Assembly: GCA_030590865.1 (NCBI GenBank)
Contig: JAUVCD010000162.1
Location: 1 to 15,112, forward strand
Origin: Myxococcales bacterium
GTDB taxonomy: Bacteria > Myxococcota_A > Polyangia > Polyangiales > Polyangiaceae
Direction: 5' to 3'
Length of the DNA stretch: 15,112 nucleotides
Both the position numbers and the translations under genes were made by a program. How positions within the stretch are numbered: the first letter of the stretch is position 1; every line of letters begins with the position of its first letter. This document shows, in pieces, positions 4,642 through 11,957 of the stretch. Under the pieces are notes generated by a model. It worked only from the letters and a program-made list of their open reading frames with translations, did no database searches and was not told the origin of the DNA.

Positions 4642-5909
4642 TTGGAATCCTCCGCTCGTAGCAATCGAGAGAGGAGCAGGTCCTTTGCATCGGCCAGGAT
4701 GGCCTGCACTCGAGCCGGGTCGTCCAGGTTGATGGTGCTTTGCTCGGCGCGCGGATCGGTGGGACCATCCGTGAGCATTGCGTCGAGCTCGGTGCGGATG
4801 TCGGCGAGTGCTGCGTCCGCAGACTCGAGATCGCGGATCTGACGCAAGAGCTCTCCGAGGGCGTCGTCTCGCTCCTCGAGGGCGTCGAGATTCAAGGGCG
4901 ACCGCGTGTGCAGACGAATCTTCTCAAGCCATACGCGCTGGTCGTAGTGGTCGGTCGCCATCCGGCGGAGCTGGTCTTCCCAGTCACCACGGGAGGCGGC
5001 CAGCTGCGGGTGGGCCGCGCTCTCGCCGGTTAGCAAGAGGCGCGCTGCGAGCATCTGGTTGTCCAGTTGGGCGAGAGCCGTTGCCAGTGCCTCGTCCACC
5101 CTGACGGTTACCGCCCCAACGTCCGCGCACTCACTCACGTCGATGTCCATCTGTGCCCAACGCACGACATCTAGCTCGCGATGCTCTGCGCTGACGACCT
5201 CACCTCCCTCGACGGTGACCAGAGTGCAGCCTTTGTTCCCAGTCTCGCGTACGTGACGCCCCTGGAGGTTGCCTGGGTAGACGATCCACGGATCGTCTTG
5301 GTAAAGGACCTCGCGCTTGTGGACGTGTCCGAGCGCCCAATAGTCGTAGCGCTTTGCGCGCAGCCCGCTGATGCTCGACTTGGCGTAATCACCGTGGCCT
5401 GGGTGGGCATCACAGTTGGTGTGGAGAAGGCCGATGTTGAAGAAGCCCTCAACCGGCTTGGGGTAGCTCGCGGACAGGTCGTCCTTCAATTCCTGGGTTG
5501 CGAATCCCTGGCCGTGAACCGCCACCTGTAGCTCGTCCACGCGGACCGTCTCAGGAGCATTGGTCGAGAACACGTGGGTGTTGTCCGGCCACTCGAGGCG
5601 GAAGGCCTTCGTCACTCGACTTTGGGCATCGTGGTTGCCCTGCACGATGAACACTCGGATCCCCGCCCGCCCAAGGGCTGCAAAGCTGCGTCGCAGCTCG
5701 AGGGGAGTGTTCATGTCCCGGCACTCGCCGTCGTAGAGGTCGCCGGCGATGAGGACGAAGCTCACCTGCTCTTGGATGGCTAGGTCCACCAGATTGTCCA
5801 TCGCGCGACGGGTCGCGCCCCTGAGCTCTTCGACGGGAGCTCCCTCGTAGCGATCGAGGTTGATGAGGGGACTGTCCAGGTGGATGTCTGCCGCGTGGAT
5901 GAATCGCAT
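4638..5909 (-). CDS. SbcD/YhaO-like calcineurin-type metallophosphoesterase (DNA repair exonuclease)
   Basis: Metallophosphoesterase motifs in order: MRFIHAADIHLD, IAGDLYDG, VQGNHDA, LLHTN, ALGHVHKR. The ORF track extends to 5987, but the Met at 5909 (MRFIHAADIH) sits at the conserved N-terminus and is preceded on the minus strand by AGGGGA with a 5-nt spacer. The stop overlaps the start of the downstream ATPase. Confidence 0.9.
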   Translation of the reverse strand: MRFIHAADIHLDSPLINLDRYEGAPVEELRGATRRAMDNLVDLAIQEQVSFVLIAGDLYDGECRDMNTPLELRRSFAALGRAGIRVFIVQGNHDAQSRVTKAFRLEWPDNTHVFSTNAPETVRVDELQVAVHGQGFATQELKDDLSASYPKPVEGFFNIGLLHTNCDAHPGHGDYAKSSISGLRAKRYDYWALGHVHKREVLYQDDPWIVYPGNLQGRHVRETGNKGCTLVTVEGGEVVSAEHRELDVVRWAQMDIDVSECADVGAVTVRVDEALATALAQLDNQMLAARLLLTGESAAHPQLAASRGDWEDQLRRMATDHYDQRVWLEKIRLHTRSPLNLDALEERDDALGELLRQIRDLESADAALADIRTELDAMLTDGPTDPRAEQSTINLDDPARVQAILADAKDLLLSRLLRAEDSK

Positions 5910-6072
5910 GGCTATCCCCTGGTCTGTGGGCGCTCCAGGGCGCTTGGGTCCGCCCGACGGCGCCACCATCGCGAGTAGCGCAACCAAGACCTGCTGTCAG
6001 CAAGACGACGCGCCGCAGGTCTGCCTTGGCGTTCGTGAGACCGATCGGGGTGTCGTGGCTGGCCCGCCCAAG

Positions 6073-6107
6073 AAAAAACGACCGTCGCTTCTCGCGACGG
6101 CCGTTTT
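6073..6107 (-). terminator. Bidirectional rho-independent-terminator-like hairpin (T6 tail on minus strand, T4 on plus)
   Basis: Stem 6079-6088 / 6094-6103 (7 contiguous bp CCGTCGC/GCGACGG plus 2 more after one mismatch), 5-nt loop. It is flanked by AAAAAA (6073-6078, which reads UUUUUU after the hairpin on the minus strand) and TTTT (6104-6107). Confidence 0.6.
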
Positions 6108-6130
6108 CGCTGGCAGTGTTGCGGCGATCC

Positions 6131-6180
6131 GCCCCACAAAATGACTCGAGGGCGATCTCGGTTGCCCGAGTCGCCCTCGA
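6131..6180 (-). terminator. Long GC-rich hairpin with GCAA loop followed by U-rich tract on the minus strand (terminator or 3' stability element)
   Basis: 15-bp stem 6146-6161 / 6166-6180 with a single bulge (T6156). The loop 6162-6165 ttgc reads GCAA on the minus strand. The downstream minus-strand sequence is GUCAUUUUGUGGGG (complement of 6131-6145). Confidence 0.5.
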
Positions 6181-6224
6181 CGGGGTTCTACTTGCGCGCG
6201 GGTGATTCCGGTAACCACCGCTAC

Positions 6225-6241
6225 GGCTTATTCGGCCGCTG
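6225..6241. repeat. Left arm of 17-nt inverted repeat bounding the non-coding block
   Basis: ggcttattcggccgctg. The reverse complement of 8435-8451 is ggcttattcggtcgctg, a 16/17 match. The single difference gives a U-G wobble if both arms are transcribed from the minus strand. Confidence 0.75.
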
Positions 6242-8300
6242 CACGCCGCCAGACTCTGCTGGGTGACAGACGATGTCTGCCTCTCAACCTACTCTGGCAT
6301 CATCGGACTCCGTCGACCTCCCTCACTGCACTGGCAGTTCGCGCCGCCATGCGCAGTCGGAATAACGCGGTTTTTCGCCGCGAGAGCTTCGTCTGTTGCG
6401 TCCGGTTGAGCTCAGGCTTTACCCCGGGCCCTGACCCTCTGCGCCTTTCAGCTGGGAGAGCCTCCCGATCCGCACCATCCTTTGACGCTTCCTGTCGCTC
6501 GAACAGCTTGTGACCAGCTTCCACACTTGCCACTTGGCTCCACTGCTCCTCCGAAGAGTCACAGCGATTCCGCTACTCGCGCCAGGACCGTTCCTCCCGC
6601 TTGCCGGTTAAGGCTCACAGGGCTCACGACCCGAAACGTCTTCAATCGGTTTGATCCCGACCTTTCGGTCGGAAGTGGCCGCTCAATCACTCAACTCGCG
6701 CTGAACTTCCGAGCAACCGGAACACCCTTTTGCGACCTACAGCACCCCGCCCGTCACGGTGATGGGCTGCCGCATCTCGCTATTTCTCGTCGCACCGGCA
6801 ATGTCGAAACGCTACCGACCTTCGAGAGAAAGGCACCTCTTACCAATCTTTGCAGTCGACTTGTTGTCAACGAGCACCCGCCAGATCCTTCAATTCCCGA
6901 GCAGCCCGGCTCTCACCGTTCCGACCACCGTTTCGAGCCCTGCCCCGCTGATACGCACCCTCGTACGCACCTTGGAACAATTCCGTCACCGGTGGCGCCG
7001 AATAGCCGCAAGCGGCATCTTCGACCCCTAGTAGTGTCGCGGTTGGCGTCGCGAACACTAGCTGTGCCCATGGTCCAACGCTCCCCGGCAAGGGGTTGCC
7101 TCCGTCGCCCTTTCGGGCCGGACATGACCTACGCTGAACCTTGTCGGTTCTGACGCAAGCCGCGTGGCCTGGCCACTGACACTCCCTGTCGCACTGACCT
7201 GTCGCCCCGGTTTCACCCGGTTTGACTGACCAGCACCAAGGACCCTTTCCACGGGCGACGCACCAACGCCACCGCTTTCCAGGCCCGAAGTGCCTTCCGC
7301 CTACGAGTCCCCACCACTCACCCCCAACTCACGCTGGAAGCGAACGACGGAGCCGCCGCTGGTCCCTCGGCTTTGCCGCCTCGGTCCAGTTTCCGACACG
7401 CATTCACGCGCAGGTACTACGCGCTAGACCCAATCACCTTGCCGGTTATTCACCGGAGCTTTCAGGCCACGTGCCGCTCGTCGACTTCAACAATTGAAAG
7501 GATCCACGAGCACAACCTCGCTCTCTCCAGACCCTGGTGCTGAAGTGCAATGGTAAACCACCGCGCACCGGGTGACGCCGCTCTTGCGAGACAACGCCTG
7601 CTGAGCAGTCACAGCTCAGGGGTCAGCCCGAACGCTTTCACGTTTGGTCAACCCCCACAGTGACCTCCGTAGTCACCGTGGATTTACCCCAAGCCGATCG
7701 ACTCAGACACCTCTTGTCGCTTGCTAACACTGTCTGCGCCCCGGATAAGGAATGCAAACAGCGACCGTGCGGATGTCGGCCCCTCCCGACCCCTTGCGGG
7801 ATCTTAGGAAGGATCAGCTCGCCGGGCTCACCGCACCCCCGAAGGAGCACGCTTCGCCTTGAAGGGCCGTCTCCTGCTGCCACTCGCGAAAGCAGCTGCG
7901 CTCGACCGCACCCAAGGTGCCTTCCACCCTCGAGACCTCTTTACTGGCCAGCAACTGCGTTTCCGCCGCCGCTAACCTCGATCGCCCGCTCGGTTACCCT
8001 CGCGTTCGACCTCGAAGTAGAGTGCTTCCCCGGTTTGGTCATCCCTCACCGGCTCAGCGACCCCGACACCTTTGTTACTGCCGACAACATGGCCCTGACA
8101 GGATCCATGCGTCGCCAGCTCAGCCGAGCGTTTCGGAGGGCTCCCTAATGGGCCCACCGACTCGTGATCGGCTGCAGTGCCCCCTGAGGCTTCTGCGTCT
8201 GGAAGAGTCCGAAGCTTGATGTGCCGCAGAACTTCCAAGACGTAATGTGGTCGAAGCGATCCCTATTTGCAAACAAAAAAGAACGGAAAGACCTCTTTTT

Positions 8301-8370
8301 TTACCCCACAGGGTTATCCACAGGTTGTCCCCAAGTGCTTGAAATGAGGGGTGTTGTTGCCTGTGGACGG
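8301..8370. promoter_or_regulatory. Cluster of DnaA-box-like 9-mers forming an imperfect hairpin, in an AT-rich segment
   Basis: Perfect TTATCCACA at 8314-8322. Near matches are TTGTCCCCA at 8325-8333, TACCCCACA at 8302-8310, and the inverted TGTGGACGG at 8362-8370. The 8317-8324 / 8360-8367 arms (8 bp) plus CCCC/GGGG (8329-8332 / 8348-8351) can form a hairpin. Confidence 0.3.
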
Positions 8371-8409
8371 TTCGCCGTGTCGGTTATGCAGATAGTGTTT
8401 GTTGTAATA

Positions 8410-8437
8410 ATTGTATGTAAATAGAACGAGCCGTCAG
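8410..8437 (-). promoter_or_regulatory. Sigma-70-like promoter candidate reading into the non-coding block
   Basis: Minus strand: CTGACG (8437-8432), 16-nt spacer, TACAAT (8415-8410), in the most AT-rich part of the window. A second weaker candidate is TTGCAA at 8267-8272. No experimental TSS is available. The -35 overlaps the right inverted-repeat arm. Confidence 0.3.
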
Positions 8438-8451
8438 CGACCGAATAAGCC
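8435..8451. repeat. Right arm of 17-nt inverted repeat bounding the non-coding block
   Basis: cagcgaccgaataagcc, the partner of 6225-6241. The match starts at the outer edge and extends inward, as in terminal inverted repeats or an end-to-end closing helix. Confidence 0.75.
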
Positions 8452-8454
8452 CAT

Positions 8455-8493
8455 AAAAAGGGGGAAAACGCTCACGTCGTCGTGAACTGAGCG
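8455..8493 (-). terminator. Possible intrinsic terminator of the smr-domain gene
   Basis: The stem CGCTCA/TGAGCG (8469-8474 / 8488-8493) lies about 30 nt after the stop. On the minus strand it is followed by UUUUCCCCCUUUUU (complement of 8455-8468). The stem is short and the loop is large, so this is weak. Confidence 0.35.
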
Positions 8494-8524
8494 ACCTGCG
8501 AGGGATCACCGATCGCCATCAGAA

Positions 8525-8842
8525 TCAGGGCTGCCGTTGCCCAGGCTCAGGGCTGTCATTCCTTAGCCACACGATGGTCGCACCCCAGCCGCCGCGATGG
8601 CTGGGCGCGTTGCTGAAGTCGTCGACTAAGGGATGCTGCGCGAGCAGGTTTTGCACCTGATGACGTTGCACACCTTTGCCCCGCCCGTGGATCAGTCGCA
8701 CTTCGGTGAAGCCCTTCTCAGCGGCTGCTTCTAGGTAAGATTCGACGACCGATAGGATGTCGCGAGGCTGAAAGCCGTGCAGATCGATGACGTCCTCGAT
8801 CTCGATGACCGCAATATCGTCTTCTGCTGGTGGGTCGCTCAC
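8525..8842 (-). CDS. Standalone Smr (small MutS-related) domain protein, 105 aa
   Basis: VIDLHGFQPRDILSVVESYLEAAAEKGFTEVRLIHGRGKGVQRHQVQNLLAQHPLVDDFSNAPSHRGGWGATIVWL carries the Smr hallmarks: DLHG, HG+GxG, a HP-V--F motif and GG-GAT-V-L. Confidence 0.88.
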   Translation of the reverse strand: MSDPPAEDDIAVIEIEDVIDLHGFQPRDILSVVESYLEAAAEKGFTEVRLIHGRGKGVQRHQVQNLLAQHPLVDDFSNAPSHRGGWGATIVWLRNDSPEPGQRQP

Positions 8843-8949: not shown

Positions 8950-10632
8950 ATGAAGCTTTCCCAAAACAGGATGAGCCCCGTGGCGTGGGTTGCCTTGTGT
9001 GCCGCCACCTTGATGAGCCAGGGGTGCGGTCCCACTGCGCCGGCCCGGGATGTCGACCAAGCGGCTGTCGGCGATACGCCAGCTGCGCCAGCCGATCCTT
9101 TTGCTATCACTGGCGAGCTGCAAACAGAGCAGTTGGCTGCCAGCGCTCCATCCTACCCGTTGGTGCGCCGCGAGCTGCCGCCTGCGCCGCCGGGGCTCTG
9201 GGCGCCGCCAGCGACATGCCGTGCCTTCGAAGCTCGCAAAGCCAGCTCAAACCCGAGCTGCATCGATCCGAGCTCGGCTCATGGATCGCTAGATGCGGCT
9301 CTCGCGCTGTCTGATCCCTCAGAGCGCGACGAGGCGCTCTTGGCTCTCGAGCCATGCACGCACTTGTCGGTGGGGATGGTTCGCGCCCTGCGCGCCGAGC
9401 TGGCCCCGCCCGAGTGTGGCGACGTCATCGTTGGAGCTTTGGTTCGAGAGCCCCCGGCAGACATGCCCGGCGTGATCTACGACGCGCTGGTTGGCCTCGC
9501 CTTGTCTGGGCGGCTGTCCCGGGCTGCCGTGTCGCCGCCTCAGCTCGAGCCTCCATACACCAAAGAGTCGGTCACCAAGTATATCGACAGCGCGATGGGA
9601 GCCTGGGTCAAGCAGCAGGCCACCGCGATCCAGGCGCTGGCCATCATCGGCGCCAAGCTTCGCCATTACGGCAAGGCGGTCGTTGCGGTCGAGGCCGGGC
9701 TGGCTGAGATGCGCTTCATTGATGCCGTTCGGAAGGTGCCGGTGCCCGAGGAAATCGCCAAGTTCGAGGAGGCCAAAGAGACGTACTACCAACGTCTCGA
9801 GTCTCAGCTCGAAGCGCGCAAGCGGCGGGGCCGCGACGCCGCCCTAGTTGGTCTCGGCCAGCTCGCCCAGGTCGGGGTGATTCGTGGCCTGAGGGTGGAA
9901 CGAGCGCGGGCGATTCTGTCGCGCATGTACGGTGGCAGTCCCATCAATGCACTCGATGGGCTGCAGCTTCCGCCGCTGCAGCCTGCGGGGGCCACGACTG
10001 CGGAGCAGCGGCTCGTGGCGCGCCTACCGACCTTCTATGCGGGCCTCACGCTGCAAGCTGATGCGGTCAAAGAACCGCTGATGCTGCGGATGATCATCGA
10101 GAAGGGGCTGCCGATCGCTCATCGTATCGCTCTGGGCAAGACCGAGCTCAGTCCGGCGCTTCGCTTGCTCTATGCTCGTGGCCGCTTCGAGCTGGCGCAG
10201 AACTACTGGCGCAGCGTCGATGTCGACGAGGCCATCGGCCTGCTTTCCGAATGGCCCGCTGACCGTCAGCGGCCCCCCGAGGCGAGCCTCTTGCTTGCCC
10301 TCGGCATCGCCTTGCACGGCGGTCCCGCCAACGCGGCGGAGATGATGGTCCGCGCGCCCCTTGCGGATCTGCGCATTGGCAATGTGGTGGCCTTGGACGC
10401 GTTGGCCGACGATGGTGGCAAGCTGGCTCCCATGGCGGCCTTCGATGCTGCGCTCATCAAGCAGCTGTCGGCACCGGCCACGGCTACCGCCGACTATTGG
10501 CGCGACGTAGCAGCACGGTTTCGCAAGGCTGCGGGCTTGATGCAGGACGTGCACGACAAGGCCGATGCCGAGCAGCGCGCCAGCGAGGCAGAGCAAACTG
10601 CCGCCGCCATCGAGCCGGGCGCTGGTGACTGA
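8950..10632 (+). CDS. Putative secreted/lipoprotein, Ala/Leu-rich helical, function unknown (560 aa)
   Basis: Long ORF with GC-rich third positions. N-terminus MKLSQNRMSPVAWVALCAATLMSQGCG is a signal peptide with a lipobox-like SQGC. An alternative start is the Met at 8971. I recognise no domain. Confidence 0.8.
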   Translation: MKLSQNRMSPVAWVALCAATLMSQGCGPTAPARDVDQAAVGDTPAAPADPFAITGELQTEQLAASAPSYPLVRRELPPAPPGLWAPPATCRAFEARKASSNPSCIDPSSAHGSLDAALALSDPSERDEALLALEPCTHLSVGMVRALRAELAPPECGDVIVGALVREPPADMPGVIYDALVGLALSGRLSRAAVSPPQLEPPYTKESVTKYIDSAMGAWVKQQATAIQALAIIGAKLRHYGKAVVAVEAGLAEMRFIDAVRKVPVPEEIAKFEEAKETYYQRLESQLEARKRRGRDAALVGLGQLAQVGVIRGLRVERARAILSRMYGGSPINALDGLQLPPLQPAGATTAEQRLVARLPTFYAGLTLQADAVKEPLMLRMIIEKGLPIAHRIALGKTELSPALRLLYARGRFELAQNYWRSVDVDEAIGLLSEWPADRQRPPEASLLLALGIALHGGPANAAEMMVRAPLADLRIGNVVALDALADDGGKLAPMAAFDAALIKQLSAPATATADYWRDVAARFRKAAGLMQDVHDKADAEQRASEAEQTAAAIEPGAGD

Positions 10633-10704: not shown

Positions 10705-10880
10705 TCAGTGGGTTGTCAGGTGACGCCCAGAGCACTTGCACCCACCGTGCCGACTCGCCACGTCCAATGATCTCGGGGGGACCTCATGGTCCTGTGAACG
10801 CTCCTTCACACTAGCGGCGTGAAGCGGGCGATACGCTTCGCGTAGCCATGCTGAGGTCAGCCGATTACGATTGGAGGATC

Positions 10881-11957
10881 ATGGTGCGTTCGGTCTTTGA
10901 CGTGGGCGAATCTTGGGTGGTGCTGCGCCGCGTGTGGCTGGGCGGCCGCGTCGCTGCGTTGTGCGCTCTTTGGAGCTGCGCCGCCGCGGCGCCGACCGAA
11001 TCAGGGTCCCACTCTGCCTCAGCCGCCGGGAGCACTGCGGTCGAGGAGAAGGTGTCGGACGGCAAGTCGACGGTCACCGTGCTGTCCCGCCCAGGTGACG
11101 AGCGTCGCAAGCCGAAACCCGCTGTCAGCGCTACGCCACCCTTGACCGACGAGGCGTGTCAGCAGCGGCCGGCCTGTGCAGAGCGCGGCCTGTGTACCGC
11201 CTCAGGCCAAGACTGTGTCGCGCGATCCTACGCGGACTGCGAGCGCATGACTGCCTGTGCAAGCGGTAAGTGTGCCTTCACCGCTGGACAGTGCCAGCCG
11301 GTACCTGATTGCAAGAACGCCCACGAGTGTGGTGTTCGGGGTCGGTGCCAAAATGACGGTGCTGGTTGCGTGGCGGGCGCGGTGGAGGATTGTCGTGGAG
11401 CGACCCTCTGCCCAAGCGACGGGCTCTGCAGCTTGGCCGATGGCGTCTGCGTCGCCCAGTCGCCTGGCGATTGCCGTCGTGCTGCGGCCTGTCTGAAGCA
11501 GGGGCGCTGTACCCCTCGCAGTGGCGCTTGTGTGGCCCTGCGGGACAACGAGTGTCGCCGGTCAGAAGGTTGTCGGCGGGACGGCAGATGCTCTGCTCGT
11601 GGCGGCACGTGTGTGAAGAGCTGCCGGGAGTCGGAGGCCTGCGCGAATGGTGGTCGCTGCGGCGAGCCCCCGGCTGCCCGGGCGGGCGAGGCGAGTTGCA
11701 TCGTCGTCTCCGATCAGGACTGCCAAAAGGCTACTATTTGCGCTGAGCTCGGTCACTGCTCCATGGGACTCGCCAGGCGCTGTGAGGCGGGCGATGACGT
11801 CGAGTGTCGCCGGTCCCGGTTGTGTCGAGAGCAGGGGCGCTGCACCGCCACCCGGGGGCGCTGTTGGCCTGGTTCGAAGGCAGAATGTGAACAAGCCACC
11901 GTCGCGTGCAAACGAGAAGGACGGTGCAACCATGACGCGGGCCGCTGCGTCCGCTGA
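10881..11957 (+). CDS. Secreted cysteine-rich repeat protein (ten units of about 27 aa, each C-x5-C-x5-C-x6-C)
   Basis: ORF 10848..11957. The ATG at 10881 (or GTG 10884) follows GGAGGA at 10873-10878. A hydrophobic signal-like segment is VWLGGRVAALCALWSCAAAAP. From residue 104 of the ORF-track translation (nt 11157) there are about 40 Cys in ten units, e.g. DCKNAHECGVRGRCQNDGAGC and DCRRAAACLKQGRCTPRSGAC. Confidence 0.8.
   Translation: MVRSVFDVGESWVVLRRVWLGGRVAALCALWSCAAAAPTESGSHSASAAGSTAVEEKVSDGKSTVTVLSRPGDERRKPKPAVSATPPLTDEACQQRPACAERGLCTASGQDCVARSYADCERMTACASGKCAFTAGQCQPVPDCKNAHECGVRGRCQNDGAGCVAGAVEDCRGATLCPSDGLCSLADGVCVAQSPGDCRRAAACLKQGRCTPRSGACVALRDNECRRSEGCRRDGRCSARGGTCVKSCRESEACANGGRCGEPPAARAGEASCIVVSDQDCQKATICAELGHCSMGLARRCEAGDDVECRRSRLCREQGRCTATRGRCWPGSKAECEQATVACKREGRCNHDAGRCVR
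11151..11954 (+). repeat. Degenerate tandem coding repeat (about 81 nt period) encoding the 4-Cys modules
   Basis: Seen at protein level as ten consecutive modules with conserved Cys spacing and a G-x-C motif. The nucleotide copies are diverged. Confidence 0.7.

Follow-up and report, generated by a model that had tools for sequence, protein, structure and literature searches.

Large ornate RNAs of bacteria have opened unexpected biology, RNA-only nanocages and membrane-associated ribonucleoproteins (RNPs) among it, and to our knowledge the largest well-supported structured bacterial RNAs apart from ribosomal RNA (rRNA) fall below about 1 kb. GOLLD is the largest of the three classes OLE, GOLLD and ROOL, with many members longer than 800 nt (PMC12286853). 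Here we describe a locus in a 15,112-nt contig of a Myxococcales bacterium (JAUVCD010000162.1, assembly GCA_030590865.1; the whole of this stretch is referred to below as the window) which, we hold with considerable confidence, is a stand-alone gene on the minus strand, at 8237-6182, for an undescribed and highly structured non-coding RNA (ncRNA) of about 2,050 nt in a Polyangiaceae-related lineage of Myxococcota. No structured bacterial RNA other than rRNA would be as large. An earlier reading of the bare sequence (the original prediction) had proposed a novel structured ncRNA of about 2 kb here, on the minus strand and with its own promoter and terminators, and that core claim is now supported by homologues, by covariation, by strand-specific folding and by contigs from different samples whose ends coincide.

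The RNA resembles OLE, GOLLD and ROOL (and also HEARO and raiA) in being a long stand-alone ncRNA with many covarying helices, GNRA-rich loops and A-rich unpaired regions and, as with the first three, it was noticed as an oversized, strand-skewed intergenic region free of open reading frames (ORFs) whose sequence reveals no function. At a length of about 2,050 nt, and with covariation in 65 of its 87 helices, it has the features by which large ornate ncRNAs are described, namely a length above about 500 nt, many conserved helices and no coding capacity. It differs from those three classes in showing no sequence or structure similarity to them (Rfam 15, E up to 5-10), in its three-domain layout, and in its setting, which is chromosomal in Polyangiaceae and neither phage- or prophage-associated nor in Firmicutes or extremophiles. 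It also differs in size, being about 2.5 times as long as GOLLD, and all three classes are less than half its length (PMC12286853). Rfam 15, whose models cover rRNAs, RNase P, transfer-messenger RNA (tmRNA), 6S, the signal recognition particle RNA, group I and II introns, OLE, GOLLD, ROOL, HEARO, raiA, riboswitches and small ribozymes, gave no match at gathering score over the whole window. At E up to 10, the interval 5900-8600 returned only three chance-level small-RNA matches of at most 22 bits. Five whole-contig homologues together with L034, the most distant homologue, returned only five chance-level matches of at most 18 bits, none of them consistent between homologues. The covariance-model search thus bears out the original failure to match this RNA to any known class, and literature searches, which were not exhaustive, found no earlier description of it.

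The locus occupies the 2.6 kb between the stop codon of smr (8525; Pfam Smr) and the start of a gene for an SbcD-like metallophosphoesterase (5909), a gap confirmed at the coordinates first given for it. In the window smr, the RNA, sbcD and sbcC all lie on one strand. The strand skew that had drawn attention to the block is real, with a plus-strand GC skew of -0.15 to -0.25 (about -0.2) over 6250-8250 and G making up 36.9% of the mature RNA strand, and so is the AT-rich DNA at its smr end, where GC is 0.54 over 8250-8500.

Searches of genomes and metagenomes recovered about 20 homologues at 61-91% identity, from metagenomes and one Polyangiaceae genome. The SbcD of the window has no exact record, and it was a 97%-identical member of its 90% cluster that led to contigs of a sister strain (L006-L008, from an NCBI metagenome-assembled genome named 'Deltaproteobacteria bacterium'), which are 97-98% identical to the window and have smr, the gap and sbcD in the same arrangement, the gap being free of called genes. 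A second route was offered by orf560 (8950-10632, plus strand), which has no Pfam domain and belongs to a well-conserved family of proteins from Polyangiaceae, Sorangium and Polyangium, with some members annotated 'secreted protein'; membership of this family places the lineage of the source organism. On contigs of orf560 relatives (74-83%) smr is followed by a copy of the block, partial in L009 and L012 and full length in L013, and these copies, found by synteny, are 82-91% identical with almost no indels. The third route made use of the 223-aa pseudo-ORF on the antisense strand, which matched 14 'proteins' in a protein database, all on contigs of 967-2,089 nt, and an exhaustive pseudo-ORF search found 38 cluster representatives; such spurious calls fall on the antisense strand because it is poor in stop codons. 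Two look-ups with antisense pseudo-ORFs yielded L030-L033, the most divergent metagenomic homologues (68-72% identity). Scanning JGI metagenomes for a conserved 21-mer gave 12 true homologues (among L014-L028) and four unrelated loci (L018, L019, L021 and L029); these last, which are matched by GTTGACAAYAAGTYGAYTGCA, were set aside as they share only a short hairpin motif and both nhmmer and the covariance model exclude homology. Finally, a relaxed 22-base pattern found a sole match among 185,579 GTDB species representatives, L034, in an 'uncultured Polyangiaceae bacterium', which is 61.5% identical over aligned columns. Each locus compared holds a single copy of the RNA.

The nucleotides of the RNA are under stronger purifying selection than the adjoining protein genes. 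Between the window and L006 the RNA body (6190-8249) differs at 11 of 2,060 positions (0.53%), and all 11 differences are transitions, whereas seven flanking protein genes diverge by 2.1-3.8%, the chorismate synthase gene by 11% (in an alignment that contains gaps), the AT-rich stretch 8250-8524 by 5.1% and the interval 6060-6189 by 3.1%. Seven of the 11 substitutions affect paired positions of the minimum-free-energy fold, and in each of these seven G-U preserves the pairing (CG to UG, AU to GU, UG to CG), so that the minus strand must be the RNA strand.

A fold computed from the window sequence with no comparative input contains 731 pairs and was tested across the 19 sequences of the alignment designated A3: 90.8% of the cells hold standard pairs, as opposed to about 40% in slid controls, in which the 3' partner is shifted by 1-3 columns. 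Both sides have changed with pairing kept in 149 pairs (419 cells), as opposed to 39-59 pairs (57-116 cells) in these controls. The consensus obtained with RNAalifold has 706 pairs, is 95.4% paired and includes 169 pairs changed on both sides, so that over the two structures 149-169 such pairs are observed where slid controls give 34-59. At least one both-sided change is found in 65 of the 87 helices, and two or more in 44. L034, which had been held out when the structure was derived, pairs at 80.6% over 644 pairs and shows 99 both-sided changes against 41-50 in slid controls. Covariation exceeds slid controls and, in one sub-domain, shuffled ones as well, and about 700 base pairs in about 87 helices, arranged in three domains of 620-720 nt, are kept by compensatory substitutions. 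The structure is also specific to one strand, the sense strand folding at -1004 kcal/mol and the antisense at -759 kcal/mol with less covariation. Relative to dinucleotide shuffles, minus-strand z-scores are negative in every 300-nt window (-1.2 to -5.9), whereas plus-strand values lie near 0 except at the two ends, which hold terminators or promoter hairpins; a strand-by-strand comparison of this kind had been put forward as a check on the original prediction, and the minus strand passes it throughout the block. Some 69% of the nucleotides are paired, A accounts for 42.5% of those that are not, and the hairpin loops include 11 GNRA tetraloops and one UUCG. We claim no pseudoknots: a de novo search produced 35 non-nested candidates, mostly overlapping well-supported helices, which we regard as phylogenetic noise from a small number of clades. 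Pairing of a UAUUCG segment (about 7003) with a CGAAUA loop (about 6232) was likewise dropped, as it shows no covariation in A3 and has a recurrent C-A mismatch.

The ends of the RNA can be read from contigs that consist of little else. Eight contigs from different samples, 68-90% identical to the window, start within 5 nt of one another (8225-8229), and six (L015, L023, L024, L027, L031 and L033) end at 6181/6182, directly 5' of the first terminator hairpin, with three more ending 7-12 nt beyond. In seven cases the whole contig is the RNA sequence alone, five of them measuring 2,009-2,056 nt and two 1,944-1,959 nt, and among about 30 contigs with the RNA pseudo-ORF (in JGI, ENA and Logan) none exceeds 2,089 nt, which amounts to a length ceiling of about 2.06-2.09 kb. 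L028 has the same 5' start and continues 170 nt past the terminator, while genomic contigs (the window, L006, L013, L014 and L034) extend into flanking genes. As assemblies of single-copy DNA have no reason to break at one nucleotide, inside a block whose promoter is equally conserved, we infer that the contigs of about 2 kb are assembled transcripts of an abundant, stable RNA. These contig-defined ends, and an estimated 5' end at about 8237, give the RNA (8237-6182, minus strand) a length of about 2,046-2,056 nt; a hidden Markov model of alignment A3 maps to 8227-6182. The shared end at 6181/6182 suggests that the 3' end is trimmed or processed back to the base of the hairpin, or else that sequencing systematically drops off there. 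Only L024 terminates in ...ACCA, where its relatives have ...ACCG.

Upstream of these contig starts lies a conserved promoter-like block (8282-8244, minus strand), which consists of a T-tract, a -35 element TTGCAA (8272-8267), a 17-nt spacer and a -10 element CACATT (8249-8244). TTGCAA-N17-CACATT is invariant in six genomic homologues, including L034, while the spacer is partly variable, and the six share one layout: GGGGRCAACCTGTGGATAACCMTGTGG and an A-tract, 14 variable nucleotides, TTTTTTGTTTGCAAATAGG, the spacer, CACATT, 3-6 variable nucleotides and then the invariant 5' sequence of the RNA, UGGAAGUUCUGCGGCAC (UGGAAGUUCYGCGGCACA). We take this block as the putative promoter, with a start near 8237, about 10 nt outside the positions at which the contigs begin. 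Of the promoter originally proposed, then, a conserved promoter-like block at 8272-8244 stands and a site nearer 8440 does not: a hit of a sigma-70 scan at 8437-8410 was rejected, since it lies in a stretch only 56% conserved and upstream of the conserved elements. Further upstream, at 8331-8297 on the minus strand, is an element GGGGACAACCTGTGGATAACCCTGTGGGGTAAAAAAA (also CCTGTGGATAACCCTGTGG) with the direct repeat CCTGTGG-N4-CCTGTGG, which is conserved out to L034. It includes a perfect DnaA-box sequence, TTATCCACA (plus strand, 8314-8322), the only perfect one in the window, and is probably a binding site for a regulator.

At the other end, both of the terminator-like hairpins that had been described are present, with equivalents in homologues. 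Terminator 1 (6180-6137, minus strand) is a two-tier hairpin at 6180-6146, with a 10-bp outer stem and an inner CUCGG-GCAA-CCGAG, followed by UCAUUUUG (UCAUUUU); L013, L014, L028 and L034 retain it with changes that are either wobble or compensatory, and the transcript-like contigs stop just 5' of it. Terminator 2 (6107-6073, minus strand) has an A-tract, a 10-bp GC-rich stem at 6103-6079 and U6, and at its position L013 has a hairpin and T8 with a different stem sequence. A generic terminator scan with a loop limit of 8 and stricter rules listed neither hairpin.

The three domains of the structure follow one another along the minus strand. Domain I (8227-7506, about 720 nt) is closed by a three-segment long-range helix that joins 8227-8197, at the 5' end of the RNA, to 7532-7506 and has 23 pairs, three of them with both-sided changes (RNAalifold on A3, columns 15-46 with 730-756). 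Domain II (7505-6883, about 620 nt) is closed by a 13-bp helix between 7505-7492 and 6895-6883 in which two pairs have changed on both sides. Domain III (6880-6181, about 700 nt) has a weak closing helix of 4 bp and well-supported sub-domains, one of which, at 6642-6482, forms a three-way junction. By RNAalifold this sub-domain has 50 pairs, 17 with both-sided changes; in the model alignment it is 96.1% paired and has 22 both-sided pairs, compared with 10.8 +/- 2.1 in shuffles and 5-11 in slid controls, and none of 500 shuffles reaches any of the observed measures. R1, a covariance model built on it with L034 left out, recovers that homologue at 75.5 bits (E 5e-14). R1 also finds a second copy of the module in domain II (7296-7176, minus strand; AAGGCACUUCGGGCC ... 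GCGACAGGGAGUGUCAG; 32 bits, E 7e-6) and a weaker third match at 7923-7776 on the same strand (17.8 bits), and its matches fall at equivalent places in every homologue. The module, of 120-160 nt, has the consensus AAGGCAC.UU.GGG ... GCGACAGGRAGYGUCAG, and its recurrence may reflect an internal duplication or repeated binding or assembly sites. An extension of the repeat to whole domains is not supported: a three-domain profile comparison gave weak local matches, the best at E 0.002, and a triplication of the domains was set aside in favour of the module alone. Two palindromic loops were also observed. In the hairpin at about 6330-6345 (minus strand, GGCGGCGCGAACUGCC), which bears the palindrome CGCG, the CGCGAA loop is invariant in all homologues and the stem covaries, and a UUAA loop at about 6608-6611 (minus strand) is kept in nearly all homologues, L015 being different. 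Palindromic loops mediate kissing contacts between the subunits of homo-oligomers in OLE and GOLLD (PMC12286853), and by analogy the CGCG and UUAA loops offer a lead, and only a lead, to sites of self-association.

One feature of the original prediction is not retained, a 17-bp helix that was to join the ends of the block. The inverted repeat on which it was based (6225-6241 and 8435-8451) has 16 of 17 positions complementary, where we estimate that about 0.01-0.02 such repeats would be expected by chance. Its 5' arm (8451-8435, minus strand) lies outside the RNA and upstream of the promoter, some 200 nt before the RNA begins, within the smr-to-promoter spacer, the least conserved stretch of the locus (56% identity to L009); this arm carries three substitutions in the sister strain, one giving a G-U wobble and two breaking a pair, and is unrecognisable in L009. 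The partner arm (6241-6225) sits in an invariant hairpin near the RNA 3' end. The repeat is thus strain-specific and no conserved helix of the RNA, whose three domains have closing helices of their own.

How else might the locus be read? It could be a decayed or frameshifted protein gene, or hold a real plus-strand gene such as the 223-aa ORF at 6482-7153, and gene callers have indeed reported 'proteins' from this block in many assemblies, 14 clusters being listed in one database and 38 representatives in a second. However, the ORFs of the gap are mechanical and short, as had been noted at the outset, the longest, of 223 and 162 aa, being on the plus strand and without a match in a Pfam search, and the called 'proteins' have no Pfam domain and lose their similarity in blocks, like frameshifted translations of non-coding DNA. 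The amplitude of GC by codon position is 0.05-0.14 over 6000-8500 as against 0.3-0.48 in the flanking genes. The check for protein-like conservation came out negative: variable columns in A3 are spread evenly over the three phases (376/378/374, p = 0.99), with no 3-nt periodicity, 239 indels are not multiples of three and 28 are (89% non-multiples), and stops are numerous in all six frames of every homologue. Moreover, substitutions compensate in RNA helices, and those mediated by G-U fit the minus strand only. The gap region is non-coding, and we give a protein gene virtually no chance. A different proposal, that the RNA acts in cis as a leader, long 5' untranslated region (UTR) or attenuator of an sbcD-sbcC operon, or as the 3' UTR of smr, would fit the common strand of the four genes and the adjacency of smr and the RNA in the closest relatives. 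But that adjacency is kept only there (L006, L009, L012 and L013), the gene downstream of the RNA is convergent in L013, and L034 has no smr or sbcD nearby, the RNA there being flanked upstream by a divergent radical-SAM gene and downstream by a gene of the IF-2B family. Neither the gap nor similar DNA is present in SbcD relatives at 56-59% identity, and a GTDB synteny scan via SbcD found no relative, so that the RNA is not linked to sbcD; those at 58% already argue against a cis role. The smr-to-promoter spacer is poorly conserved, as described above, the contigs start downstream of the conserved promoter and not inside smr, and two conserved terminators lie between the RNA and sbcD. With these terminators intervening and with downstream genes that differ, we do not count the RNA among sbcDC leaders or riboswitches, and we consider a cis role exceedingly improbable.

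That the block might be a mobile or selfish element, whether a non-autonomous transposon bounded by the 17-bp inverted repeat, a retroelement RNA such as a group II intron that lacks an ORF, or an ornate RNA of phage origin comparable to GOLLD or ROOL, is brought to mind by the 17-nt repeat that brackets about 2.2 kb, by the different gene contexts of the window and L034, and by GOLLD and ROOL being large RNAs encoded by phages or prophages (PMC12286853). We find this very unlikely, since one arm of the repeat is inside the conserved RNA and the other is not conserved, each locus has a single copy, and the RNA has its own promoter and not flanking exons. Nor is there an adjacent reverse transcriptase, integrase or phage gene; blastn against phage and plasmid records and a pattern scan of IMG/VR gave no match, and Rfam shows no group II, GOLLD or ROOL match in the window and six homologues at E up to 5-10. 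The locus is instead a chromosomal gene that stands on its own, in a narrow lineage related to Polyangiaceae. A regulatory role for the structured RNA, for example as a decoy or sponge whose repeated modules titrate small RNAs or a protein, is harder to set aside. The recurrent module, with its two to three copies, lends itself to such a role, and sequestration of a ribosomal protein has been proposed for OLE (PMC12286853). Yet 65 of the 87 helices covary and indels are very few, a constraint on the RNA that exceeds what a few repeated sites would need, and we think a sponge unlikely.

A trans-acting RNA gene remains the reading that we prefer, and comparison with RNAs of similar build gives some idea of what it might do. 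Like 16S and 23S rRNA, between which it falls in size, the RNA has domains closed by long-range helices, conservation above that of adjoining protein genes and a strong dedicated promoter with an upstream element (here putative), and it turns up as a separate contig in many data sets. Unlike them, it matches neither small- nor large-subunit rRNA models, is confined to one narrow lineage and is less conserved (61-91% identity within one family-level group), and it has no transfer RNA (tRNA) or 5S context; in the window no tRNA, 5S or tmRNA gene was found, nor an rRNA-operon context. With group II introns, RNase P RNA and group I introns it shares a large multi-domain fold, GNRA tetraloops, A-rich junctions and extensive covariation, and by analogy with these large ribozymes a catalytic role is possible. 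Group II introns have a 5' GUGYG, a domain V, a D1-D4 architecture and an intron-encoded reverse transcriptase or flanking exons. The RNA here matches no intron or ribozyme in Rfam, begins with UGGAAG/GCGGCAC and not GUGYG, has no ORF for an intron-encoded protein or reverse transcriptase and no flanking exons, and has instead a promoter and intrinsic terminators of its own.

It is tempting to assemble these features into a mode of action. Transcription would begin near 8237 from TTGCAA-N17-CACATT, with a regulator bound at the upstream element that contains the perfect DnaA-box sequence; the primary transcript would stop at the terminators, and the stable species would end at about 6182, at the base of the first terminator hairpin. 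The RNA would then accumulate to high levels and work in trans through its three-dimensional fold, as the core of an RNP or of a self-assembling RNA particle, possibly catalytic, and not by base-pairing to an adjoining mRNA. We infer an architectural or catalytic role in trans on four grounds: constraint extends to almost all the helices, there are few indels, A is common among the unpaired nucleotides (a feature of rRNA and large ribozymes as well), and there is no conserved target in cis. The fullest version of this proposal is a new class of RNA, rRNA-sized, three-domain and the largest non-ribosomal structured RNA of bacteria, which would be restricted to a Polyangiaceae lineage, be abundant in sediment metatranscriptomes and serve as the core of an RNP machine or self-assembling particle, possibly with catalytic activity; on this we are evenly divided.

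Several points weigh against these readings. The homologues fall in few clades, so that counts of cells overstate the number of independent compensatory events, and the long-range and domain-closing helices have fewer covarying pairs than the local hairpins. CACATT agrees with the sigma-70 -10 consensus at three of six positions, and a generic sigma-70 scan missed the block. The metatranscriptome origin of the contigs of about 2 kb is deduced from their coincident ends and their lengths, and they carry no strand information. One of 185,579 GTDB species representatives was matched, by a 22-base exact pattern that may miss divergent copies. Finally, no protein partner keeps its place beside the RNA, so that gene context does not constrain its function.

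Elsewhere in the window a few observations stand apart from the RNA. The ORF at 10848-11957 (plus strand, 369 aa) has a GC codon-position periodicity of 0.03-0.15, compared with 0.3-0.4 in its neighbours, and no Pfam match, and is retained at 357-369 aa in L006, L009 and L010; it may encode an unusual or low-complexity protein or may be mis-called. The strongest fold signal outside the RNA locus (z = -5.8, on the coding strand) is at 9301-9600 (plus strand) inside orf560, and may be mRNA structure or chance. An imperfect 22-nt tandem duplication (8520-8563) lies across the smr stop codon, and Smr has 102 aa in the sister strain and 105 aa in the window.

The way in which the more distant homologues were reached may be of wider use. 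Translating the pseudo-ORFs of the stop-poor antisense strand and searching protein databases with them reached homologues beyond the range of DNA tools, and the same approach may reveal other giant RNAs. The RNA described here now has defined ends, promoter and terminators, together with a secondary-structure model and an alignment of about 20 homologues, so that it is tractable for synthesis, probing and cryo-electron microscopy, and these features also allow it to be sought in culturable myxobacteria, which are prized for their complex biology. Should the upstream element prove to be a site for DnaA or another regulator, expression of the RNA would be tied to the cell cycle, and an RNA 2.5 times larger than GOLLD would imply that these bacteria have a function that needs RNA architecture on the scale of the ribosome.

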